From an uncultured Bacteroidales bacterium (GTDB lineage Bacteria > Bacteroidota > Bacteroidia > Bacteroidales > FEN-979), in contig CAIYUC010000211.1 of assembly GCA_903929315.1 (NCBI GenBank), forward strand, positions 8,274 to 72,273: a stretch of DNA of 64,000 nucleotides, written 5' to 3'. This document shows, one piece after another, positions 23,148 to 33,177 of the stretch. Each line of letters opens with the position of its first letter. The stretch's first letter is position 1. The position numbers and the translations under genes were made by a program. A model generated the notes under the pieces. That model had not been told where the DNA came from. It did no database searches and was given only the letters and a program-made list of their open reading frames with translations.

Positions 23148-24419
23148 ATGTCTTCAACTTTCTTATATATTATTCTTGCCATCCTTGTCTTTGAGTATAT
23201 TCTTGAAAGGATACTGGCTTATTTGAATTCAACATACTGGAGCGACCATCTTCCCAAAGAACTCATCGGTATCTATGACGAAGAAAAGTACAAAAAATCT
23301 ATGGCCTATGAGAAGCAAAAGCAGAAATTCGGGTTGGTGGTCAACACGCTGACTTTCCTTGCTATGTTGGTGGTGCTTACTCTGGGCGGGTTTGGATGGT
23401 TGGATCATTTCATCAGGAATTATACGGAAAATCCGTTCCTGATGGCTCTTTTATTTTTTGGTATGCTGGGGTTGGTCTCATCGATCCTTTCCATACCTTT
23501 TGAGCTCTACCATGTATTTGTTCTTGAAGAGAAATTCGGCTTCAATCGTACGACACCGAAAACCTTCATTCTTGATAAAATCAAAGGATTAGTCATTGGG
23601 GCAATCATTGGTGGTGGTTTACTTTTATTGATCATCTATATTTATTTATCGACAGGAAATTATTTTTGGATCATAGCATGGGTTGTTATTGCTTGTTTTA
23701 TGATCTTTATGACAATGTTTTATTCTAACCTGATTGTACCTTTATTTAATAAGCAGAAGCCCCTGGAGCCAGGAACACTGCGGGTTGCGATCGAAGCTTT
23801 TGCAATAAAGGTTGGATTTAAGCTGAAAAATATTTATGTTATCGACGGATCCAAACGCTCCAAAAGAGCAAATGCATACTTTACCGGTTTGGGGATGAAA
23901 AAAAGGATCGTCCTGTATGATACACTGATCACCGATCATACCACCGAGGAATTAGTAGCCGTATTGGCACATGAGATCGGACATTACAAGAAAAAACACA
24001 CAACCTTATCCATAATTCTTTCACTATTGCAGACAGGTTTGATGCTTTTCATCCTGTCACTTTTCATCAGAAGAGAAAGTCCGCTTTCTCAAATGCTTTG
24101 TCAATCCCTGAGCGGCTTTGCAGGTATAGGAATTAAACAAAGCTTTCATATGGGGATCCTCGCATTTGGACTTTTATATTCTCCACTCTCATTAATCCTG
24201 GGAATATTGTTAAACATGCTTTCCAGGGCCAATGAATACCAAGCCGACCGTTATGCAGGGCTTAAATACAATCCGGAATCATTGCAGAATGCACTGAAAA
24301 AGTTATCCGTGAATAATCTCAGCAATCTCAGGCCTCATCCTGTTTATGTGTTCTTTTATTATTCGCATCCCTCTTTATTACAACGCCTTTCTGCGCTGGA
24401 AAAGTTAAAGGAACAGTAA
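23148..24419 (+). CDS. M48 (Ste24-like) membrane zinc metallopeptidase
   Basis: DGSKRSKRANAYFTG, HEIGH, EYQAD, SHPSLLQRL; multiple TMs. Confidence 0.92.
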   Translation: MSSTFLYIILAILVFEYILERILAYLNSTYWSDHLPKELIGIYDEEKYKKSMAYEKQKQKFGLVVNTLTFLAMLVVLTLGGFGWLDHFIRNYTENPFLMALLFFGMLGLVSSILSIPFELYHVFVLEEKFGFNRTTPKTFILDKIKGLVIGAIIGGGLLLLIIYIYLSTGNYFWIIAWVVIACFMIFMTMFYSNLIVPLFNKQKPLEPGTLRVAIEAFAIKVGFKLKNIYVIDGSKRSKRANAYFTGLGMKKRIVLYDTLITDHTTEELVAVLAHEIGHYKKKHTTLSIILSLLQTGLMLFILSLFIRRESPLSQMLCQSLSGFAGIGIKQSFHMGILAFGLLYSPLSLILGILLNMLSRANEYQADRYAGLKYNPESLQNALKKLSVNNLSNLRPHPVYVFFYYSHPSLLQRLSALEKLKEQ

Positions 24420-24438
24420 TCTCGATTTATGTGTTAAT

Positions 24439-24465
24439 AAAAAAGCCGGGCATTGCTGCCCGGCT
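24439..24465 (-). terminator. intrinsic terminator (possibly bidirectional)
   Basis: AGCCGGGCA-TTGC-TGCCCGGCT stem-loop preceded by an A-tract on + (U-tract on -), between convergent genes. Confidence 0.8.
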
Positions 24466-24490
24466 GTTCAACCAACCTCATCTATCCATG

Positions 24491-24925
24491 TTAATCTTTT
24501 TCTGAAGGTATTGGATAAAGATTAAATTGATAGATTTTGCCTTCTACAAATGGACCTGGTTTTGAATCCGGGTAAGGATAGAGCTTAAAGAGTTGCCAAC
24601 CACCTTCTGATGGTAATACCAGACGAGCTACCGTGGCGCTGATTATTGAATTTAAGCGTCTGATGTCGGTAAAATAATAGACCCCGGTGCCCAACGAGAA
24701 CATTTGTGCGGGTGCAACCATACGTCCGATTTCATCTGTCATTATTACATAAAGCTTCGGTAGAGGCAAACCTAAATTGGAAGCCGGATGAATATTTACC
24801 TGATATTGAATACGACCAGGTACCTGTGATTTGCTTTGGGGGTTATTTGATTTGGAATAAACTGCATTTACCCCAATGATGATCAGTGCAAGACTGAGAA
24901 CGGTGACGATTATTAGTGTTTTCAT
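24491..24925 (-). CDS. hypothetical secreted protein
   Basis: 144 aa with signal peptide MKTLIIVTVLSLALIIIGVNA; own terminator; no family recognised. Confidence 0.7.
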   Translation of the reverse strand: MKTLIIVTVLSLALIIIGVNAVYSKSNNPQSKSQVPGRIQYQVNIHPASNLGLPLPKLYVIMTDEIGRMVAPAQMFSLGTGVYYFTDIRRLNSIISATVARLVLPSEGGWQLFKLYPYPDSKPGPFVEGKIYQFNLYPIPSEKD

Positions 24926-25119
24926 GTTTTTTTGTTTTAAAGGTTAATACTTTTTTTCATGATGTAAAGGTATTATCGCCAAGTGGACGGGATCAAGAGA
25001 GAAAACACCTGATATTACTGTGGTTTTAGACGCTTTTTCAGAATATATATTTACTTTTATAAAGGATATGTATTTGCGTATTTTTTATGCGTAGTTTTGC
25101 ATAATGGGAGTTGAAATTG

Positions 25120-25166
25120 ACCTGATATGTAAATAACAGGTTCATTTATAATTTGTATTATATTTG
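25120..25166 (+). promoter_or_regulatory. CRP/FNR-like palindrome plus -7 box upstream of the usp genes
   Basis: ACCTGATA-TGTAAA-TAACAGGT (7/8 inverted match) at 25120-25141; TATATTTG at 25159-25166. Confidence 0.45.
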
Positions 25167-25207
25167 CTTTGTTCTATTCCTACCGTGCGTGTTTTACTGA
25201 AACGAAG

Positions 25208-26014
25208 ATGAAAAAGAAAATAGTCGTTCCAACCGATTTGACAAAAACGGCAGATCAAGCGATCAGACAGGCTACAGTCATTGCACTGAAAGCTCGGGCA
25301 AAGCTGGTACTGTTGCATATTCTGGATAATAAATCTCCCTCTGCAATCGAAGTAGAAAAAACGTTGAATCTACAAGTAAACACCATCATGGAACAAACCG
25401 GTCTGGAGTGTGAGATCATCCTGAAAGAAGGGTCGGTTTTTGATGTAATCCCTTATGTAGCCCGTGAAAAAGACTACGATCTGATGGTGATCGGCACTCA
25501 CGGCATCAAAGGTATCAGGCAGATGCTGATAGGCGCAGATATTCTTAAACTCGTTGCAAAAGTCTCCATACCGGTTCTGGTCGTTCAGGAAAAAGCTGCC
25601 CTGGTTGAAGACTTCAAGAGAGTCATTCTTCCTGTCAGCAGCCATGAGGCATTCATTCCAGCAATTGAAGCATTGCTATTCTTTGCCGGAATATATAATT
25701 TAGAAGTTCATCTTTATTCCATCTATAAAGCAGGCTTTGAATGGCCAAAACAATTATTATTGAATATTGATGAAACCATTAAACGGTTTGAATCAAAGGG
25801 TGTTCAATTCAAAAGAATAAAGGAAGATCAGAACAGTTACTCCATGGGGTATGCAAAACAGACATTAAAATATGCGGAATCCGTTGATGCGGATTGTATC
25901 TGTGTCATGTCAGTCCCGTCGAAGGAATATTACTATTTTGCACAATCCGATAAGGAAACATTATTGCTGAATGAATCTAACATACCTATACTCTGTACAG
26001 GGGGTGGGTATTAA
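25208..26014 (+). CDS. universal stress protein (tandem USP domains)
   Basis: KKIVVPTDL, DLMVIGTHGIKG, IPVLVV; ATG 25208 lies after the promoter. Confidence 0.88.
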   Translation: MKKKIVVPTDLTKTADQAIRQATVIALKARAKLVLLHILDNKSPSAIEVEKTLNLQVNTIMEQTGLECEIILKEGSVFDVIPYVAREKDYDLMVIGTHGIKGIRQMLIGADILKLVAKVSIPVLVVQEKAALVEDFKRVILPVSSHEAFIPAIEALLFFAGIYNLEVHLYSIYKAGFEWPKQLLLNIDETIKRFESKGVQFKRIKEDQNSYSMGYAKQTLKYAESVDADCICVMSVPSKEYYYFAQSDKETLLLNESNIPILCTGGGY

Positions 26015-26030
26015 AATAATAATGATTACT

Positions 26031-26909
26031 ATGGAAACAAAGCACAAGAAAGAAGTAAAGTATAACAGTATTATACTCATTCCTACTGATTTTTCAGAGA
26101 ATTGTGAGAATGCGGTCAGTCATGGAGTTGAGTTGGCCCGATTCCTTCATTACAATGTTTGCATTCTGCATGTCATTGATAAACAAGCCGAAAGTACAAT
26201 AAAAAAAGATGAGCCCGCGTTGGATGTCGTCAAACAAAAGCTGCAAAAGAACAAAGAGGAATATGAGAAAAAGTTTAATGTGAATATAGAAACCCTTATC
26301 AGATACGGTAATATTCTGAAAGTTATCGATAAAGTAGCTGTTGAGCTGAAAGCCAATCTGATGCTCCTGGGAACACCTGGGAAACAAGGGCTTCAGCATT
26401 TACTTGGAAGCCATGCCCTGAAGGTCGTTCTTGATTCACCCTGTCCGGTTGTCGTAGTACAAAAACGTTCATTCGACAATGGGTACAAGAACATCGTTTT
26501 ACCGGTAAGTAATGAACTTGAATCACGACAGGCAATCGAATGGGTAATGCTGATGAGCAGACTTTTTAATTCAAGGATACTTCTCTACCAATCGCTGGAA
26601 TCGGATCCTGCATTGATCAGCCGCCTGAAAATCATCATCCAGCAGATCAGTAAAGTTTTGAACGATGAAAAGGTTCCACACACCGTTAAAGTTGCCGAGA
26701 AACCGAAAGATTTTGCAGCCCAGGTTATATCTTATGCTGTCGCGAATAAATCGGATATGATCATGATTATTACCATGTCGGGAGCCGAGGTGCCGGGTTT
26801 CATTTTCTCAGTCTGGGATGAACGCATGATGTTCAATGAAGCCCAAATACCGGTAATGTGTATCAATCCTATTGAACTGGGAGAATATTATTACGACTGG
26901 ATGGGATGA
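26031..26909 (+). CDS. universal stress protein (tandem USP domains)
   Basis: ILIPTDFSENCENA, LMLLGTPGKQG...GSHA, CPVVVV; start at 26022 or 26031. Confidence 0.88.
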   Translation: METKHKKEVKYNSIILIPTDFSENCENAVSHGVELARFLHYNVCILHVIDKQAESTIKKDEPALDVVKQKLQKNKEEYEKKFNVNIETLIRYGNILKVIDKVAVELKANLMLLGTPGKQGLQHLLGSHALKVVLDSPCPVVVVQKRSFDNGYKNIVLPVSNELESRQAIEWVMLMSRLFNSRILLYQSLESDPALISRLKIIIQQISKVLNDEKVPHTVKVAEKPKDFAAQVISYAVANKSDMIMIITMSGAEVPGFIFSVWDERMMFNEAQIPVMCINPIELGEYYYDWMG

Positions 26910-26953
26910 TACCTAACTAAAAATTGGTGTTTGCTAAAAATCCCCGATTGATT

Positions 26954-27592
26954 TTATTTCGGCCCTTTGGTTTTGTTACAATCGCAATTGGGTGGACATG
27001 GTTCCACAGAAAAAGTATTTTGGGTTGTTGATTTGATATCGTTACCAATTTGATCAACACCACATACAACAATGCATTCAGTACCATTAGAAGTATTACC
27101 GGGAGTCAACCTGAATCCCGACACTGGCGTTTTAAGGTTAGAAGCAGTTTGTATTTTTTTCATAGCATTATATTGATCCATAGTCAGATAAATTATTACA
27201 AAATTCGGTTGACATGTTCCCATATCGGTGGTTTTGGATGTGTTTGGAATTACGGAACCATTGGTATCAATTCCGTCGATCAAAATGAAATAATTATTCT
27301 TCGTCTTAGAACCCACAGTCAACCTGAATGCATCCACCGGCGTGGGAAGGTGTTGAGTACTTAGAATTTTTGTCATCGTATCATATTGACTCTTAAATAT
27401 AGTCATTCTCCAGAAATGACCAGGGGAGGGAGGAGGCTTGAGCTTCCCATTGAAATAGATTTGTTTCTCTTTGGCTATATTTTTTTTAGGTACTGCCTGG
27501 GTATTTTGCCCTTTTAATCCTATCACTCCAACTCCGACTATTAAGCCAATTACAAGAGCTGTTACGAACAAAATAAAATTATTATTTTTCAT
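26954..27592 (-). CDS. membrane-anchored hypothetical protein with a tandem 71-aa duplication and C-terminal PCPPNCDC motif
   Basis: N-terminal hydrophobic segment; QYxxMxKI...TPVxxFRLTxG...G[IV]DxxG occurs twice; divergent from the cyclase gene. Confidence 0.75.
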   Translation of the reverse strand: MKNNNFILFVTALVIGLIVGVGVIGLKGQNTQAVPKKNIAKEKQIYFNGKLKPPPSPGHFWRMTIFKSQYDTMTKILSTQHLPTPVDAFRLTVGSKTKNNYFILIDGIDTNGSVIPNTSKTTDMGTCQPNFVIIYLTMDQYNAMKKIQTASNLKTPVSGFRLTPGNTSNGTECIVVCGVDQIGNDIKSTTQNTFSVEPCPPNCDCNKTKGPK

Positions 27593-27696
27593 AGTGTGTA
27601 AATTTTAGTTGTTTCGATAATTTTATATATTTTCGCTATAAATATAAAGACTTTTTTGTAAATGACAATTTCTGTGTAAAATTTTATCCTATTCTT

Positions 27697-29934
27697 ATGT
27701 TCCGGATTTCAACTTTACGCAATAATACATTACAAAGATATTCTGCTTCAGCTGCTTTAGCTCTCTTTTTCATCTTTAACCTTCACGTCGAAAAAATGGC
27801 CGGACAAGTAGAACCAACAAGCTATATAAACAACTTGTCACGGGAATATAAAAATGCAAAAAACGATAGCATGAGAATTGAGCTTCTTTCAAAGCTTGCT
27901 TCTTTCTATTTAAATTACATGGATGATTATATCCTTGCCGATAGTATCAGTGAAGCCGCTATTGAAACTGCTGACAAGAGCTCACTTCCCGGACTTCAGT
28001 TTCTTGCCTTGACCAGGTACATCCAATCGAACGATCTTGAAAAGTATCCCGAGAAGGCTTTTGCTCATGCAAAAAGATCTATGGAGCTTTCCAGGAAAAC
28101 CCATAATCCGTTTGATGAATGGCGTTCTCTCAAAAACATGGATACGGTGTGTTTGTCCAACCATGACTCCTCCATGGCTTATGATTTTGCTTCAAAAGCA
28201 ATGATAACTGCCGGGAAATTGAACAATGACAAGTTAAAAGTTGAAAGTTACCTTGACATCGGGAGATGTCTTGAAGATAAAAAAGAGAAATTAGAGGCAT
28301 TAATGAAATATATAAAAGCGAAGGACCTTGCGGAGAGATTGAATGACCCTTCTTTATTGAAGAAATGCTATCATGTTTTGGCAAATTTCTATAGCATGGC
28401 TAAGTTCCTCAATAAAGCGGTTGAATTCAAGGATAGTGAAGATATTCTCGTCCGGAATATCCGTCCGGTTGACTCCACGGCTCTTATGTGGATCCAATAT
28501 GACAGGTTGACGATTGATATTGCCAATAACAACAATCGTATGATCGAAAAAGATTTGCAGTATATTCTTGACTTTGCCATGAGACATGGAGCCCAAAGGC
28601 TGAAAAGATTTGAATTCGCACTCTATCGAACTCATCTTCTCACGGCTAATTCAATTGACCAGCTCTATGACCTTTATAATAAAAAATATCCCTCAGAATT
28701 GAAACAAATGTTGTTAAACGAACCGGCAAGATTTTACCTGCTGAAAGCTTATTTTACTGAAAAAGAAAACAAGACAGATTCCGCCACATATTATTTCAAT
28801 AAAGCCGAACAATTAATGCGCACCCAATCGTCTTTTCTCAGATCTCAGTTTTATTACAGGTTTGCCCAGTTTTTGATCCGGCACGGGCGAAAAATGGAGG
28901 CCATCGATAAACTGCACCAATCGTATAAGCTGGCGAAGGAGGCTGATTACCTGGATAATGAGCTCAGTGCATCCGAACTGCTTGATTCTCTTTATTCTCA
29001 AATAGGAGATTATAAAAATGCCTATATCTGTTCACTGCAAAATAACAAACTGCAAAATAACATATATGAATGGTCAATGAAAGAACAATTGTTCAGGACA
29101 CAGATCGAACATGATGCCCAGCAACATGAGATGGCTGTAGCACTGGAAAAAGAAAAATCCGATAAAGAGATCAAGCAGAAAAAGACAGAAAGAAATATGA
29201 TGGCTGCTGGTATTGGGTTCCTTGTCATACTTTCGTTTGCTATTTACAGGAACTACAGGAACCAGAAAAGATCGAACAAGCTGCTGGACGCTGCAAAGAA
29301 ACAATCCGACGATCTCTTATTAAATATCCTGCCATATGAAACAGCAGAAGAATTAAAGTTGACAGGAACAGCAAAAGCAAAACGGTTTGATGAGGTTACA
29401 GTCATGTTCACAGACTTTAAAGGTTTTACCCAACTCAGTGAAAAAATGGGTGCAGAAGATCTGGTTAAATTGGTAGATTTCTATTTCAGCGAATTCGACA
29501 AGATCATTGCCCGTCATAATATTGAAAAGATCAAGATCATCGGTGATAGTTACATGTGCGCAGGAGGATTACCTATTACTAATAAGTCCCATGCATATGA
29601 TGTGGTTTCTGCTGCACTTGAAATGCAGGAATTCATGAATATCCAGAAAAATGAAAGATGTTCACGCGGGGAAATTTTCTTCGAATTAAGGATTGGTATC
29701 AATACCGGTCACGTGGTGGCTGGTATAGTCGGATTAAAGAAATTCGCTTATGATATCTGGGGCGATTCGGTGAATATTGCATCAAGGATGGAAAGCGGCG
29801 GTGAGACCGGAAAGGTAAATGTCTCCGGGTTTACCTTTGAGTTAATAAAACATCAATTCCATTGCACTCCCAGAGGAAAAATTGAAGCGAAGAACAAAGG
29901 ATTGATTGATATGTATTTTGTGGATATAAAATAA
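27697..29934 (+). CDS. receptor-type class III adenylate cyclase (extracytoplasmic TPR-like helical domain, one TM, cyclase domain)
   Basis: TM MMAAGIGFLVILSFAIY; SDDLLLNILP signalling helix; MFTDFKGFT, KIKIIGDSYM, YDIWGDSVNIASRMES with both metal-binding Asp, Asn/Arg and the ATP-specifying Lys/Asp. Confidence 0.9.
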   Translation: MFRISTLRNNTLQRYSASAALALFFIFNLHVEKMAGQVEPTSYINNLSREYKNAKNDSMRIELLSKLASFYLNYMDDYILADSISEAAIETADKSSLPGLQFLALTRYIQSNDLEKYPEKAFAHAKRSMELSRKTHNPFDEWRSLKNMDTVCLSNHDSSMAYDFASKAMITAGKLNNDKLKVESYLDIGRCLEDKKEKLEALMKYIKAKDLAERLNDPSLLKKCYHVLANFYSMAKFLNKAVEFKDSEDILVRNIRPVDSTALMWIQYDRLTIDIANNNNRMIEKDLQYILDFAMRHGAQRLKRFEFALYRTHLLTANSIDQLYDLYNKKYPSELKQMLLNEPARFYLLKAYFTEKENKTDSATYYFNKAEQLMRTQSSFLRSQFYYRFAQFLIRHGRKMEAIDKLHQSYKLAKEADYLDNELSASELLDSLYSQIGDYKNAYICSLQNNKLQNNIYEWSMKEQLFRTQIEHDAQQHEMAVALEKEKSDKEIKQKKTERNMMAAGIGFLVILSFAIYRNYRNQKRSNKLLDAAKKQSDDLLLNILPYETAEELKLTGTAKAKRFDEVTVMFTDFKGFTQLSEKMGAEDLVKLVDFYFSEFDKIIARHNIEKIKIIGDSYMCAGGLPITNKSHAYDVVSAALEMQEFMNIQKNERCSRGEIFFELRIGINTGHVVAGIVGLKKFAYDIWGDSVNIASRMESGGETGKVNVSGFTFELIKHQFHCTPRGKIEAKNKGLIDMYFVDIK

Positions 29935-29981
29935 TTTTTGGGTGTATTTTTAATCCGGAATAATTTGTTCTGTTAATACCT

Positions 29982-30629
29982 ATGATAATGGCAACAAAAA
30001 AGAAAATAATAACGGTCGAAGATCATGCAATTTTCCGGGAAGGATTGAGACGGATCATTAGTGAAATGGATGATATGGAATTGGTCGGTGAAGCTCCAAA
30101 CGGAGTCGAGTTTTTAAAAATGTTAAAGAAAGTCACTCCCGACCTTGTAATAATGGATATACAAATGCCGGAAATGGATGGTATCGAAGCTACCGAGAAA
30201 GCGCTGCAATTTAATCCATCCCTAAAGATCCTTGTTTTAAGCATGTTCGGTGAGGAAGAATACATTTTTTCAATGGTGGATAAAGGAATATATGGTTTCA
30301 TCCTGAAAAATTCCGATGTGACGGATTTCAAAAAAGCAATTACGAGGGTTTCGGACGGACAACATTACTATTCCGAAGAAGTCATGCAGGTGCTCGTAAA
30401 AAAAGTCAGAGGATACGATACCATGGATAAGATCACCTTCACCCATAAGGAAAATGAAGTCCTGCGATTACTTTGTAAGGGATTGTCAAATGCTGAGATT
30501 GCGGAAAAAATTTTTATCAGCACCCGTACTGTTGAAGGGTACCGGAATAAACTGCTTCAAAAGACAGGCACATCCAATGTTTTGAACCTGGTCATATTTG
30601 CTTTACGGAATAAACTTGTAATTTTATAA
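29982..30629 (+). CDS. NarL/FixJ-family response regulator (receiver + LuxR HTH)
   Basis: VEDHAIFREG, MDIQMPEMDG, LSNAEIAEKIFISTRTVEGYR. Confidence 0.92.
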   Translation: MIMATKKKIITVEDHAIFREGLRRIISEMDDMELVGEAPNGVEFLKMLKKVTPDLVIMDIQMPEMDGIEATEKALQFNPSLKILVLSMFGEEEYIFSMVDKGIYGFILKNSDVTDFKKAITRVSDGQHYYSEEVMQVLVKKVRGYDTMDKITFTHKENEVLRLLCKGLSNAEIAEKIFISTRTVEGYRNKLLQKTGTSNVLNLVIFALRNKLVIL

Positions 30630-30630
30630 C

Positions 30631-31689
30631 ATGATCCATCCTATGAATACCTCCTTCCATGAAAGTGAAGCCCTTTTTAAAACCCTGGTAAAGCATCTTC
30701 CGAATCCTATCCTCATTCATATGGATAGGAAAGTCGTGTTCGCGAATGATTTCATTATACAGATCTTAGGGTATCCAAAAGATGAGATAATAGGAAAGGA
30801 TCTTGCAACGTTGTTAATCGACCCGGTAGATCACGAGAACACCCATTTCTTGTATGACCTTTTTATTAACCCTCGTGTTATTGAGGAGGAAATTGAGATC
30901 CGTACAGTAAGCCAGAAAGTGATCCTGAAAACATTTCTTCTCAGGAACAGCAGGATAAAGTATAAAGGAAGGAATGCCGTCATGACTACGCTTTTTGATA
31001 TTACAGAGCGGAAGAATCTCGAAAGATATGTTCTTGGTAAAGTCATTGAAGCAGAAGAAAAAGAACGGAAGCGATTCGCAGCCGATCTTCATGATGATCT
31101 GGGACCTACTCTGTCCAGCATAAAGCTTCACCTGAGTCTTCTTGAAAACCCTAAGGATCCTGAAACCTTCTTATCAGATCTTAAAATGTGTAAAGAGCTC
31201 CTGAACGATTCTATCGGAAAAATGAGGATCATCGCTAACAACCTGATGCCTCGGCTGATTGACAATTATGGGCTTGAAGCAGCGTTAAATTCCTTTATTA
31301 AAATGATGCAGAAGGAAGGGCAATATACAATTGAATTTATTTCAAACCTGAATGGGAAACGTTTTGCAAAACAAGTTGAATTGCATCTATACAGGATCAT
31401 TTGCGAATTGATCAATAATACCGTCAAGCATTCCGGCGCCACAAAATCCAAAATAAATCTGGATTTTAAAGGGAAAATTCTGATGTTGTATTACGCAGAC
31501 AATGGAAAAGGTTATAAAGTTGAAGAAATTCATGACAGATCAAAAGGAATGGGTATTGACAACATTCTTCAACGGGTAAGCCTGATCAATGGAACTATTA
31601 AATTTCAGAAAAAAGGAGGAAAAATAGAAGTCAGAATAGGAAAGGAAATTGAGCCCTCTGAACTCCCTGAAATGGCAAAAGACAAATGA
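30631..31689 (+). CDS. cytoplasmic PAS-domain histidine kinase (HisKA_3 type)
   Basis: PAS/PAC ending DITERK; EERKRFAADLHDDLG-type H-box (EKERKRFAADLHDDLG); ELINNTVKHS, DNGKG, GMGIDN; no TM. Confidence 0.9.
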   Translation: MIHPMNTSFHESEALFKTLVKHLPNPILIHMDRKVVFANDFIIQILGYPKDEIIGKDLATLLIDPVDHENTHFLYDLFINPRVIEEEIEIRTVSQKVILKTFLLRNSRIKYKGRNAVMTTLFDITERKNLERYVLGKVIEAEEKERKRFAADLHDDLGPTLSSIKLHLSLLENPKDPETFLSDLKMCKELLNDSIGKMRIIANNLMPRLIDNYGLEAALNSFIKMMQKEGQYTIEFISNLNGKRFAKQVELHLYRIICELINNTVKHSGATKSKINLDFKGKILMLYYADNGKGYKVEEIHDRSKGMGIDNILQRVSLINGTIKFQKKGGKIEVRIGKEIEPSELPEMAKDK

Positions 31690-31762
31690 ATTGTTGTAAA
31701 TTTGCACGGGTAAAATATCTTTCCAACTTTAAACAAAATAATAGACTAAAACTACTTATTCG

Positions 31763-32350
31763 ATGAACTTTCAAGGTGCAGAGAAATACATTGTAAGCAG
31801 GTTAAAAAAAGAACTGCCCAACTCCATGTTTTACCATACACTGGAACATACGCTTGATGTCCAGAAGGTAACAAAACAACTGATCAAAAAGGAAAAAATT
31901 GATCCACAGACAGGCTTGATCATTGAAACAGCAGCATTATTCCATGATATAGGAATGCTGATCAATTATAAAGAACATGAACTTGCATCCGTTGAAGTTG
32001 CCAGAAATTCACTTCCACACTATTCCTATTCAACAAAAGAGATCACGGAAATTTGCGACCTTATAATGGTAACCTGTCTTCCGCAACGGCCGGAAACATA
32101 TACAGGCCAGATCCTCTGTGATGCTGATATGGATAACCTGGGTCGGGATGATTTCTTTATTCAGTCATTCAGGCTCAAACTGGAACTGGAAATGAATGGC
32201 ATTGGCACCACAACCATAAAGAAATGGCTGGCAAAACTTGTTCAATTCCTCGAGGAGCATACTTTTTACACAGCATCCGCAATTGAACTGCGACAAGCAA
32301 AAAAAATGCAGAATCTTTCTGAGCTCAGAGAGATCGTCATCCTTTACTAA
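31763..32350 (+). CDS. HD-domain phosphohydrolase
   Basis: YHTLEHTLDV, AALFHDIG, HELAS, ILCDADMDNLG; own -7 box TAAATTTG at 31697-31704. Confidence 0.85.
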   Translation: MNFQGAEKYIVSRLKKELPNSMFYHTLEHTLDVQKVTKQLIKKEKIDPQTGLIIETAALFHDIGMLINYKEHELASVEVARNSLPHYSYSTKEITEICDLIMVTCLPQRPETYTGQILCDADMDNLGRDDFFIQSFRLKLELEMNGIGTTTIKKWLAKLVQFLEEHTFYTASAIELRQAKKMQNLSELREIVILY

Positions 32351-33177
32351 ATATCCCTCCTTAGCATGATCCGGAATACAATTCCAATCATCACTGCAGA
32401 ATAGATTAAGGGAACAATGCAATCCAGAATAGATACTGTATCCTGTAAATGGATTCCCGCAATTTTTTGCAGGGAAGAAATATTTGGATATTCCACGATC
32501 TTAAGAACAGAATTTACGGGCAGACGGGGTGAAATGTTATTGGGTTGGAAATAAGGAATTTTCAAAATGTAATAGATAACAGGCTCAATGATCAAAGTAT
32601 ACAAAGTGAAAAGTGCAATAGTAAGACCTGTATTTCGGAATATAAATCCAAAGAAAAAAGCAAAGAGAAGAAATGTCAGGATTTGAATGAAAAAACCTGG
32701 TACAAAGACAATCTTCTTCATCATCAGAGAAAAATTTGGATGATCCGTATGAATAACTCCAAGGAGAAATATGATTACAGCAAGAATGATTGTAATGATC
32801 AATGATAATAGAATTATGACCTGTAGTTTGGATACCAGGAATTCCTGTTTACTCATGCCATTTATAAGGTTTTGTCGGATGGTCTTGAATGTGAATTCAT
32901 TTGTTATCAGGATGATAATAATAATCGCTGGAAAGATCAGGAAATAGCGGATACTGGCGAAGAACATCATGTTTTGCCAGATATCAGGAAAGAAATAAAG
33001 TGTTATATGAGGCAATGGAATTGGGAGCCTTTTATTGAAATTGTCGATCCAATTATTTAAGGTAAACTCAGCCATGAGGATCCCCAATGCCAGGAAAACA
33101 AAATATAACCCGATCAGGATCCAGAAAACTTTATAGTTCACGATTTTCTTTAGTTCTATTTTTAACAGCTTTATCAT
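32347..33177 (-). CDS. ABC-2 type transporter permease
   Basis: About 6 TMs; ITNEFTFKTIRQNLINGMSK motif; 4-nt overlap with the ATPase gene. Confidence 0.85.
   Translation of the reverse strand: MIKLLKIELKKIVNYKVFWILIGLYFVFLALGILMAEFTLNNWIDNFNKRLPIPLPHITLYFFPDIWQNMMFFASIRYFLIFPAIIIIILITNEFTFKTIRQNLINGMSKQEFLVSKLQVIILLSLIITIILAVIIFLLGVIHTDHPNFSLMMKKIVFVPGFFIQILTFLLFAFFFGFIFRNTGLTIALFTLYTLIIEPVIYYILKIPYFQPNNISPRLPVNSVLKIVEYPNISSLQKIAGIHLQDTVSILDCIVPLIYSAVMIGIVFRIMLRRDI

Follow-up and report, generated by a model that had tools for sequence, protein, structure and literature searches.

A small CX3C-tail protein as candidate partner of a receptor-type adenylate cyclase in an uncultured Bacteroidales bacterium

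A small anchored protein of 212 residues is functionally coupled to the receptor-type class III adenylate cyclase encoded beside it, a conclusion well supported by the recurrence of the pair in related genomes. The two genes lie on contig CAIYUC010000211.1 of an uncultured Bacteroidales bacterium (FEN-979), in a stretch of 64,000 nt that we call the window and to whose positions all coordinates refer. What binds to receptor-type cyclases in bacteria, or to the periplasmic TPR sensor domains that are common in Bacteroidota, is mostly unknown, and the locus offers a testable candidate partner. To our knowledge a dedicated protein ligand has not been described for any bacterial receptor cyclase, and our literature search found none. 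The locus also reveals a family of proteins, about 2,500 sequence clusters in size, that is systematically linked to signal-transduction genes.

The gene of the small protein occupies 26954..27592 on the minus strand. Its product ends in ...VEPCPPNCDCNKTKGPK; the C-P-P-N-C (CX3C) motif at residues 199-203 is encoded by 26984..26998 on the same strand. A divergent spacer of 104 nt (27593..27696), which contains the conserved block TTTTCGCTATAAATATAAAG, separates it from the gene of the 745-aa cyclase on the plus strand (27697..29934). Also on the plus strand follow a NarL/LuxR-type response regulator of 215 aa (29982..30629), a soluble PAS-HisKA_3 histidine kinase of 352 aa (30631..31689) and a stand-alone HD-superfamily hydrolase of 195 aa (31763..32350). 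The initial annotation had described this head-to-head pair, its 104-nt spacer and the co-directional genes after the cyclase, and the list of open reading frames gives identical coordinates. The gap between the cyclase and regulator genes is 47 nt, with no terminator-like site on the plus strand. Four peat RNA libraries contain contigs that overlap each of the genes in part, although such contigs cannot prove transcription.

By the Pfam cut-off and its canonical residues, the cyclase is predicted to be a class III adenylate cyclase. Its catalytic domain (residues 560-742) matched Guanylate_cyc (PF00211) with E=1.1e-54 and 185.2 bits against a cut-off of 21.9. Alignment to the C1 and C2 domains of mammalian AC8 and AC5 placed all six canonical ATP-type residues: the metal-binding Asp residues in FTD and IIGD, the adenine-specifying Lys in IKIIGD and Asp in YDIWGD, and the transition-state Asn and Arg in VNIASR. 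The intact ATP-specific active site proposed at first reading is thereby borne out. There are two hydrophobic segments, at residues 15-32 (signal or TM1) and 500-518 (TM2), with about 465 residues between them, which agrees with the roughly 460 aa of outward TPR-like region claimed earlier for a single-pass cyclase. The order is thus signal or TM1, TPR-like ectodomain, TM2, linker and catalytic domain, and the Pfam scan found nothing between TM2 and the catalytic domain. The TPR_12 match in the ectodomain is weak (25.5 bits, under the cut-off of 30.1). The only widely conserved Cys of the ectodomain is Cys224, present in 25 of 26 homologues. Three other identities were tried and rejected. A FimS-type TPR sensor kinase was set aside because residues 386-532 alone matched the FimS model (NCBIfam NF053520), with a score of 32.7 bits where the cut-off is 600, and because the output here is a cyclase. 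For a Pycsar defence cyclase, the best PADLOC match was PycC with E=1.3e-12, compared with 1e-54 for the general Pfam model, and no neighbour matched an effector. An animal-type receptor guanylyl cyclase does not fit an ectodomain in which Pfam finds only the weak TPR_12 match, nor a chain in which it finds no kinase-homology domain.

The 212-aa protein has a single hydrophobic segment (residues 3-29, a predicted TM anchor), followed by a linker and two copies of an alpha/beta domain of about 70 aa, the second of which ends in PCPPNCD (Cys199, Cys203). The internal repeat reached a local score of 111, compared with 27.6 +/- 5.3 (maximum 49) in 500 shuffles. The AlphaFold2 model has a mean pLDDT of 80; both domains are mostly above 90, while the linker (residues 31-59) and the tail (residues 201-212, disordered in the model) are below 50. 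A single-domain partner was modelled with a pLDDT of 88. As read from the sequence, positive charge is heavier after the anchor than before it, so we take the topology of this protein from its relatives. Among PDB chains, Foldseek gave no match at E<=0.001 (best 0.07, TM 0.11), and the best VIA-align Z among 48,161 chains was 3.3.

We searched 60 other genomes of the same family with the ectodomain of the window and obtained 28 loci with 31-47% identity. A member of the small-protein family is directly adjacent at 24 of them, and five of these loci have one on each side. By contrast, none of 11 control loci of other cyclases of the order has such a neighbour. The initial annotation had named linkage of homologues to sensors as a test, and these counts support it. 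As these loci belong to a few paralogue lineages in 20 related genomes of six genera, the counts represent few independent events. Adjacency is kept in both the divergent and the convergent orientation of the small gene. The four loci without an adjacent partner are L094, L105, L114 (which is at a contig end) and L108 (a weak partial match). In the three closest metagenome loci the divergent pair is retained with spacers of 100-103 nt, and head-to-head pairs occur also in other families of the class (L115, L143). Partner clades mirror receptor clades (5/5 for one cyclase clade and 9/9 for the short class), and the distances of partners and receptors correlated with a Mantel r of 0.74 (n=22), which none of 5000 permutations reached. 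Mirrored trees also follow from plain co-inheritance. The branch of the window protein itself is very long compared with those of the other partners, at 3.3 changes per column. The export signal follows the type of partner: an N-terminal hydrophobic anchor was found in 27 of 29 TPR-linked partners, and 16 of the 17 same-class members listed that have no TPR partner lack one. Several single genomes carry paralogous pairs (G458, G472, G492, G516 and G484), which provide built-in specificity controls.

The reading we consider most likely, and hold with modest confidence, is that the 212-aa protein is a dedicated extracytoplasmic partner of the receptor adenylate cyclase, acting as co-sensor or regulatory subunit. 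We infer a periplasmic location, in which the partner would be tethered to the inner membrane through its N-terminal anchor, and its alpha/beta domains and flexible PCPPxCD tail would share a compartment with the TPR ectodomain of about 465 aa. Through physical contact, partner and cyclase would form one sensing unit, the state of which would set cAMP synthesis by the cytoplasmic catalytic dimer. Two universal stress proteins, the soluble PAS kinase and the NarL regulator would probably act downstream of the cAMP signal or parallel to it. As a further guess, the CX3C motif and Cys224 of the ectodomain might constitute a thiol or metal switch.

It is rather unlikely that the small protein is instead a regulated output, namely an envelope protein that has no contact with the cyclase, whose gene and the cyclase operon have a promoter region in common and whose control lies with the module, through the NarL regulator or cAMP. 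The genes are divergent and their spacer is strongly conserved: it is nearly identical in L029 and L031 (103 nt there), and TAAATATA, probably the -7 promoter box of the small gene, occurs in 11 of 14 spacers of relatives. Elsewhere in Bacteroidota, a family member is usually the first gene of an operon and is followed by a 6-TM protein, a histidine kinase without ectodomain and often a NarL regulator; such operons are headed by the small gene and encode their own kinase and regulator, a layout often seen in autoregulated operons. However, adjacency tracks the TPR ectodomain and not the regulator, since clade B cyclases and short TPR proteins are accompanied by the partner and by no kinase or regulator. 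Moreover, convergent copies located downstream of the cyclase have no promoter in common with it, and an export signal that matches the partner type is unexpected for a mere output.

Beyond the window, the profile search recovered 2,526 clusters at E<=1e-3. Members share a domain of about 100 aa that has a (V)G(V)D..G.D block, an Arg within a G-x-R-x-Y block and, at the C-terminus, C-P-x-x-C, all of which the window protein has; its second domain matched the A2 profile with E=1.6e-25. Conservation in the family is highest in the tail motif. In 26 sequences R161, C199, P200, P201 and C203 are invariant; family-wide, C199, P200 and C203 never vary and R161 hardly does, with the C..C pair kept in 51/51 aligned members and in 124/124. 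The initial annotation had mentioned proteins with R...GVD..G.D...CPPxC beside Bacteroidota sensor genes, and both motif and setting proved correct. As for the neighbours, TPR kinases or cyclases had been expected; family members are paired with this TPR ectodomain or, in the larger number of cases, with the 6-TM protein and its ectodomain-less kinase. These kinases have one N-terminal TM and no ectodomain, so sensing must fall to the small protein together with its 6-TM neighbour. The 6-TM proteins gave no Pfam match, and none has a homologue in the genome of the window. Most same-class members of the CX3C-tail family have no export signal, so the domain is not intrinsically periplasmic. Eight family members, including the window protein, matched nothing in Pfam or NCBIfam; the nearest Atlas clusters have no Pfam family, and "hypothetical protein" is the sole name in use. 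The CX3C-tail family is large and undescribed, its confidently predicted fold gave no match to solved structures, and it would merit family definition and structural work. More speculatively, and with clearly lower confidence than the partnership itself, CX3C-tail proteins might be widespread, undescribed modular co-sensors that serve unrelated membrane transducers, namely TPR receptor cyclases, TPR proteins with a multi-TM C-terminus and 6-TM proteins that feed ectodomain-less kinases. Here, the small protein would be the cognate, genetically encoded partner of the cyclase, and its CX3C tail would form with Cys224 of the ectodomain a thiol or metal switch that gates cAMP synthesis. If true, this would also suggest a concrete candidate for what periplasmic TPR sensors in Bacteroidota recognise.

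The invariance of the CX3C motif could also point to a maturation or stability factor, for example a thiol-disulfide helper that acts on the lone Cys of the ectodomain. Each partner type has one conserved Cys: Cys224 in the cyclase homologues and that of an FLC motif at the C-terminus of the 6-TM proteins, conserved at the 60% level in 16 sequences. Nevertheless, we consider such a role improbable. No likeness to a thioredoxin-like or Dsb fold was found in either sequence or model, one-to-one co-diversification with paralogous receptors suggests specific recognition over a general helper, and leaderless members would be in the reducing cytoplasm.

Taken strictly, the proposal of the initial annotation would mean that a disulfide-looped peptide is cut from the C-terminus and diffuses to the TPR ectodomain as its ligand, much like a quorum-sensing signal, while the HD protein removes cAMP. 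Peptide binding by TPR domains is possible, as PMC11053733 states for the periplasmic TPR domain of FimS; the tail behind the last strand is of low confidence in the model of the window protein and is the best conserved part of the family. We regard this version as quite improbable, however, because the anchor is retained in nearly all TPR-linked partners and conservation extends over the whole domain of about 100 aa, with R161 and the GVD..G.D block, for which a fold is confidently predicted. In addition, no conserved protease or exporter gene lies beside the pair, the same CX3C tail is kept where the partner lacks a TPR domain, and the HD gene neither recurs consistently with the pair nor encodes a recognised phosphodiesterase. 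Finally, although two of the three family members in the genome of the window adjoin no sensor gene, a chance neighbourhood of unrelated genes is hardly credible given 24/28 against 0/11, pairing that outlasts changes of orientation and reaches outside the family, and mirrored trees.

The partner reading can be compared with known systems. Natriuretic peptide receptor A and guanylyl cyclase C, two animal receptor guanylyl cyclases, are likewise single-pass proteins with a large outward domain and a class III catalytic domain, and their chains matched the catalytic domain of the window with E=2.4e-31 and 7.9e-30. Their ligands are small disulfide-containing peptides. They differ in having a PBP-type ectodomain instead of a TPR-like one and a kinase-homology domain that is absent here; the substrate residues of the window cyclase are of the ATP type, and its kind of partner is an anchored, folded protein of 150-212 aa, unlike the free peptide in animals. 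RRNPP receptors of Gram-positive bacteria are cytoplasmic and bind imported peptides of 5-10 aa. They too use a TPR scaffold, here proposed to recognise a linked small gene product, but the TPR domain of the window lies between signal sequence and TM, and the partner is anchored and folded. In LuxP-LuxQ and TorT-TorS, a separate extracytoplasmic protein, which is a periplasmic binding protein, acts on a histidine-kinase sensor. LiaF-LiaS and BceAB-BceS are intramembrane-sensing kinases with accessory membrane proteins; this likeness concerns the ectodomain-less kinases after 6-TM genes in the wider family and not the window, and we found no sequence relation between these systems and the 6-TM proteins.

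In FimS of Porphyromonas gingivalis, two membrane segments flank a periplasmic TPR domain; a polypeptide ligand is suggested and the signal is stated to be unknown, with no partner gene reported in the accessible part of the source (PMC11053733). The window cyclase likewise has two membrane segments around its TPR domain, whereas the output of FimS is a kinase. In the same species, PorA binds PorY in the periplasm through its C-terminal domain according to the abstract of PMC12152298, a section title of which states that PorA tethered to the inner membrane still activates. As proposed for the window pair, the output of a membrane sensor is set there by a second protein, which binds it outside the cytoplasm, although that sensor is a histidine kinase and its partner a T9SS C-terminal domain. 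Binding is part of PorA-PorY, LuxP-LuxQ and TorT-TorS, and for the window pair it is a prediction. The non-catalytic membrane part of class III cyclases has been treated as a ligand receptor for the Rv1625c type (PMC4821796). Like the window cyclase, cyclases of that type have a membrane-bound catalytic domain of class IIIa type, and their chains matched the window catalytic domain at about E=1e-39. Lipids or quorum signals are sensed there by anchors built as 6-TM bundles, while the receptor part here is a repeat domain of soluble type, located outside the membrane, with a separately encoded partner.

We compared the neighbouring genes of 14 cyclase-type loci of relatives by blastp. The proposed module held for the small protein, which is tied to the cyclase ectodomain, and for the NarL/PAS-kinase pair in its neighbourhood, but not for the HD gene. 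Orthologues of the NarL/PAS-kinase pair lie within 8 kb of the cyclase at six of the 14 loci, in keeping with the earlier proposal, and at a seventh the contig ends within a fragment of the kinase; the regulator orthologues share 68-82% identity. Kinase orthologues (E<=1e-90) occur in 8 of the 60 other family genomes, all eight within the 20 that bear the ectodomain. The pair is of the NarL/FixJ two-component type: the regulator matched Response_reg (1.5e-25) and GerE (4.1e-14), and the kinase, which has no TM-like segment, matched PAS_9 (3.2e-9), HisKA_3 (2.9e-12) and HATPase_c (5e-7). The best NCBIfam rows were far below equivalog cut-offs, and no named orthologue could be assigned from them.

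The HD gene is beside the cyclase at one of the 14 loci (G458, of the same genus) and elsewhere in the genome in G459, G472, G473 and G848; its product is a peripheral member of the module. The suggestion that it erases cAMP fares poorly, given the same single linkage and a generic HD match alone (27.8 bits against 22; HDIG 25.7 against 27.6), and an HD-domain cyclic-nucleotide phosphodiesterase (HD-GYP, PDEase_I and others) was rejected on that generic match. Its best solved relative is PDB 2pq7, a 'predicted HD superfamily hydrolase' (E=0.009, weak), and its 190 homologues have generic names, with 'HD superfamily phosphodiesterase' in 2 of the 120 rows listed.

Two universal stress protein family genes precede the small gene on the plus strand, Usp1 at 25169..26014 (Pfam Usp E=5.5e-21) and Usp2 at 25971..26909 (E=5e-26); Usp2 is convergent with the gene of the 212-aa protein. 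The best match of Usp1 lies beside the cyclase at 7 of the 14 loci (46-61% identity) and that of Usp2 at 6 (38-69%), and Usp2 is 90-92% identical in the metagenome loci L029 and L030. At least one Usp gene is present at nine loci. The order of the NarL/PAS pair and the two Usp genes in relatives differs from that in the window, and in a cyclase clade of 5 loci the partner is present and Usp, kinase and regulator are absent. Further upstream, at 24491..24925 on the minus strand, the list of open reading frames has a 144-aa protein with an N-terminal hydrophobic leader, as judged by eye. It had no match in Pfam, NCBIfam or PADLOC, and homologues with 29-37% identity occur in the modules of G459, G472 and G516, the last with three copies.

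The ORFs reported in the initial annotation were recovered exactly as placed. A 212-aa ORF for the small protein (26954-27592, minus strand) lies head-to-head with a 745-aa cyclase ORF (27697-29934, plus strand) across a 104-nt divergent spacer, and co-directional plus-strand ORFs of 215, 352 and 195 aa follow the cyclase. Pfam identified these three as a receiver-GerE regulator (29982-30629), a PAS-HisKA_3-HATPase_c kinase (30631-31689) and a generic HD protein (31763-32350; 27.8 bits), and the two ORFs upstream of the small gene as Usp proteins (Usp1, 25169-26014; Usp2, 25971-26909; both plus strand). Cyclase residues 560-742 matched Guanylate_cyc (E=1.1e-54), which makes the enzyme class III; a TPR_12 match stayed under the cut-off. 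The ATP-specific active site is intact, as had been claimed: both metal Asp residues, the ATP-specifying Lys/Asp pair and the Asn and Arg all align with mammalian AC8 and AC5. Hydrophobic segments were found at cyclase residues 15-32 and 500-518 and, singly, at residues 3-29 of the small protein; none was found in the kinase. Taken alone, the cyclase is an ordinary class III member; its identity as a Pycsar-type defence cyclase was rejected. An Rfam search of 24000-33000 gave no match at E<=0.1.

In the three metagenome loci most similar to the window's, the pair is still divergent and its spacer measures 100-103 nt. By itself this is weak evidence, because the cyclases there are 73-78% identical. 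The linkage was also examined by searching 60 other genomes of the organism's own family with the window ectodomain alone. Matches of 31-47% identity appeared in 20 of them, at 28 places, and the 1.5-kb flanks of all 28 were scanned with a profile of the small protein's family, an unnamed family with a CX3C tail. A family member lay directly adjacent to the ectodomain gene at 24 of the 28 places, and on both sides at five. The four places without an adjacent member were loci L094, L105, L114 (a contig-end fragment) and L108 (a weak partial match). At the controls, 11 loci of other cyclases in the order, no adjacent family member was present. Across ectodomain loci the small gene is either divergent upstream or convergent downstream, and other families of the class added two more head-to-head small-gene/TPR pairs. 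All gene calls came from a simple ORF picker.

The TPR proteins at these loci are of two types: one of about 745-770 aa with a cyclase domain, and one of about 605-645 aa that ends C-terminally in three or four hydrophobic segments and has no cyclase domain. Short homologues include L088:1378-3225, L095:1420-3237 and L094:1411-3219; a small partner gene stands head-to-head with the first two, L094 being the exception. In one genus (loci L078 and L080; genomes G474 and G463), a family member adjoins not a sensor gene but a DUF1846 gene, and at L105 the cyclase of G463 has no adjacent partner; in this genus the partner may act in trans.

The partner and receptor trees mirror each other, with partner clades matching receptor clades in 5/5 cases in one clade and 9/9 in the short class. 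A Mantel comparison gave r=0.74 (n=22), equalled by none of 5000 permutations; with the window pair and locus L030 included, r was 0.43, equalled by 16 of 5000. Two paralogous pairs are present in each of the genomes G458, G472, G492, G516 and G484. Such mirroring is also expected from plain co-inheritance, and since the genomes of this family are kin, few independent events lie behind either the adjacency or the mirrored trees.

The small proteins also differ in predicted compartment. An N-terminal hydrophobic anchor or signal was present in 27 of 29 TPR-linked partners. Among members linked to a 6-TM protein in other classes, 14 of 18 carried one by a script test with a 60-residue limit; L035 is a fifteenth, its signal lying beyond that limit. 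By contrast, among same-class members lacking a TPR partner only one of the 17 listed had an anchor or signal. These are proteins of about 104 aa that start M-x-F-x-G-x-E, and those at L120, L123, L124, L126, L129 and others have no export signal. The same domain is apparently present on either side of the membrane, and the coincidence of an export signal with a periplasmic partner fits physical contact. TPR-linked members carry TM anchors; other-class relatives carry cleavable signal peptides.

Taken together, we judge it somewhat better than an even bet that the TPR ectodomain has a dedicated extracytoplasmic partner in the small protein, the two jointly controlling the cyclase in a neighborhood of Usp and PAS kinase/NarL genes. 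That the partner binds the ectodomain is inferred, as are the way the signal runs and any chemistry of thiols or metal. Two rivals, both judged unlikely, are that the small protein is a co-regulated output of the locus and, with slightly lower odds, that it acts as a maturation factor. Release of a peptide ligand from the small protein, one of the modes put forward in the initial annotation, did not hold up, and neither did its assignment of the HD protein as signal eraser; its coupling of small protein and cyclase and its two-component link did. Chance placement of the small gene beside the cyclase is the weakest rival, as either position of the small gene keeps the pair together, so that the adjacency outlasts rearrangement.

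The small protein itself arose by internal duplication (local score 111 vs 27.6 +/- 5.3 in shuffles). It had no NCBIfam or PADLOC match, and its sole Pfam row was sub-threshold and fell on the membrane anchor; seven relatives gave only chance-level rows against Pfam and NCBIfam. In ten close homologues an MKNNNF... anchor precedes a domain that is single or doubled; all end in an invariant EPCPP.CD, and R161 is nearly invariant. The alignment of close homologues found one weak locus in the genome-collection contigs, in a Gemmatimonadales MAG (35% identity over 40 residues). A profile built from 26 members and run against 1.84 billion representatives matched 2,526 clusters at E<=1e-3, of which 980 also passed E<=1e-10, in both single- and double-domain forms, and the source names read only "hypothetical protein"; all 30 of the nearest Atlas clusters lacked a Pfam family. 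In one subclass of upstream partners, a run of 4-8 Cys directly follows the membrane anchor (L098:3102-3566, L110:809-1267, L091:823-1290, L090:3119-3565 and L111:808-1260).

AlphaFold2 modelled a single-domain partner with a mean pLDDT of 88, as a TM helix followed by a strand-helix-helix-strand-strand-strand domain. For the window protein the mean was 80; most of both domains exceeded 90, and the 12 C-terminal residues fell below 50. Foldseek found no PDB match to these models at E<=0.001, and VIA-align against 48,161 chains found no credible fold match (best Z 3.3). Weak LOV/PAS-like, sliding-clamp-like and PepSY-like rows had TM 0.11-0.28 or Z<=3.3, the Atlas structure rows all had TM <=0.40 by query, and the family profile met solved-structure sequences only at chance level (best row MnmG, E=0.0029).

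Outside the organism's own class, the family matched 15 of 401 sampled genomes of the phylum. At 16 of 18 loci there, the family member is directly followed by a 6-TM protein of about 210 aa without a Pfam match, and at 16 of 18 a histidine kinase lies within four genes; a NarL-type regulator occurs at seven and hybrid kinases at three. The recurrent operon (L032-L051 in other classes, L117-L144 in the same class) runs CX3C-tail protein, 6-TM protein, a kinase with one N-terminal TM and no ectodomain, and then often a NarL regulator. The 6-TM protein conserves RFW...G...Y and a C-terminal FLC motif; its candidacy as a diverged HD protein was rejected (phmmer, no match; hmmsearch, E=0.15). Within the class, 69 of 401 genomes matched, of which one unpublished genome (G670) was left out of further analysis, and at the 28 loci analysed the next gene was 6-TM in 22, a TPR ectodomain in two and neither in four. 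The family's membrane partners are thus of two different kinds, and the operon has the look of a multi-component sensing system not yet described. These neighborhoods bear out the statement in the initial annotation that such proteins sit beside Bacteroidota sensor genes. At L047 (8696-10402, minus strand; other class), the gene just upstream of a family member and a hybrid kinase encodes a cNMP-binding-GAF-SpoIIE phosphatase, another family link to cyclic-nucleotide signalling.

For the rest of the module, the window proteins were set against 14 cyclase-type loci from relatives. In six of these (genomes G458, G459, G472, G492, G516 and G484), the cyclase has an orthologue of the kinase (53-68% identity) and one of the regulator (68-82%) no more than 8 kb away, which supports the NarL/PAS pair as part of the module; a seventh locus (G480) has a kinase fragment at a contig end. 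Kinase orthologues occur in 8 of the 60 genomes, all eight among the 20 with the ectodomain. The usual order in relatives is kinase, regulator, Usp1, Usp2, small gene (minus), cyclase, small gene (minus); the window differs in having the regulator-kinase block after the cyclase. At least one Usp gene is present at 9 of the 14 loci, and one clade of five loci has the partner and lacks Usp, kinase and regulator. A leader-bearing 144-aa protein (24491-24925, minus strand; N-terminal hydrophobic leader, no family match) has homologues of 29-37% identity inside the modules of G459, G472 and G516, with three copies in G516, interleaved with kinase, regulator and Usp genes. A role for Usp as cAMP receptor is a lead only. 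According to PMC11107214, cAMP-binding Usp proteins like Rv1636 occur in three actinobacterial genera only.

Among the relatives, the HD gene lies inside the module in G458 only (57% identity). Homologues elsewhere, in G459, G472, G473 and G848, are outside it, its relatives are widespread with generic names, and the closest match among solved structures, at E=0.009, is an HD hydrolase that is itself uncharacterised. P0010, a small-protein homologue, and P0164, an 81%-identical HD homologue, each stem from a 13,180-nt Logan contig, probably the same one; if so, the HD gene would be linked in a second lineage.

The window's genome encodes three family members, and only the window's has sensor genes beside it. 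The other two (C228:1949-2383 and C83:923-1309) have none alongside; by eye, one adjoins a dimethylarginine-hydrolase-like ORF, and the other has no leader and sits on a 3.5-kb contig. No 6-TM homologue was found in this genome. Four further cyclases share about 61% identity with the window's cyclase in the catalytic domain (two full-length signal-TM cyclases, one running off a contig end and one receiver-cyclase fusion), and a fifth is more distant (~35%); none of these, on contigs C194, C66, C225, C81 and C153, has an adjoining family member. Six cNMP-binding-domain proteins are encoded elsewhere in the genome.

The window system would work most like accessory-protein-dependent sensors, of which LuxP-LuxQ and TorT-TorS are examples. 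PorA-PorY (PMC12152298) is another of this kind. In architecture the cyclase resembles animal receptor cyclases and FimS-type periplasmic TPR sensors (PMC11053733). Membership tests placed the window system outside each of these named families. What is new is the partner family, that it apparently lacks a solved fold, that it pairs systematically with transducers of two unrelated kinds, and that a receptor adenylate cyclase has a candidate partner encoded genetically. Literature searches on the CX3C-tail family and TPR receptor cyclases, with bioRxiv supplements and subscription journals outside their range, found nothing.

Cys224 is the only widely conserved ectodomain Cys (25 of 26 homologues). 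In the spacer, a TTCGC-N-TAAATATA block is present in 11 of 14 cases, and its complement resembles the Bacteroidetes -7 promoter box. An imperfect inverted repeat at 27619-27653 (14-nt arms, 79% complementary) overlaps the block and could serve as a promoter element, as an operator or in both roles. A sigma-70 promoter scan stayed at shuffle level (21 sites vs 18.6 expected), its consensus being unsuited to this phylum, and no terminator-like site was found on the plus strand in the cyclase-regulator gap. Four peat RNA libraries, from four studies, contain contigs that cover each gene in part, which is presence in RNA libraries, short of proven transcription; some bins are uncovered, which says nothing on expression there. 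The cyclase-regulator junction lies within one such contig, which has 35 differences.
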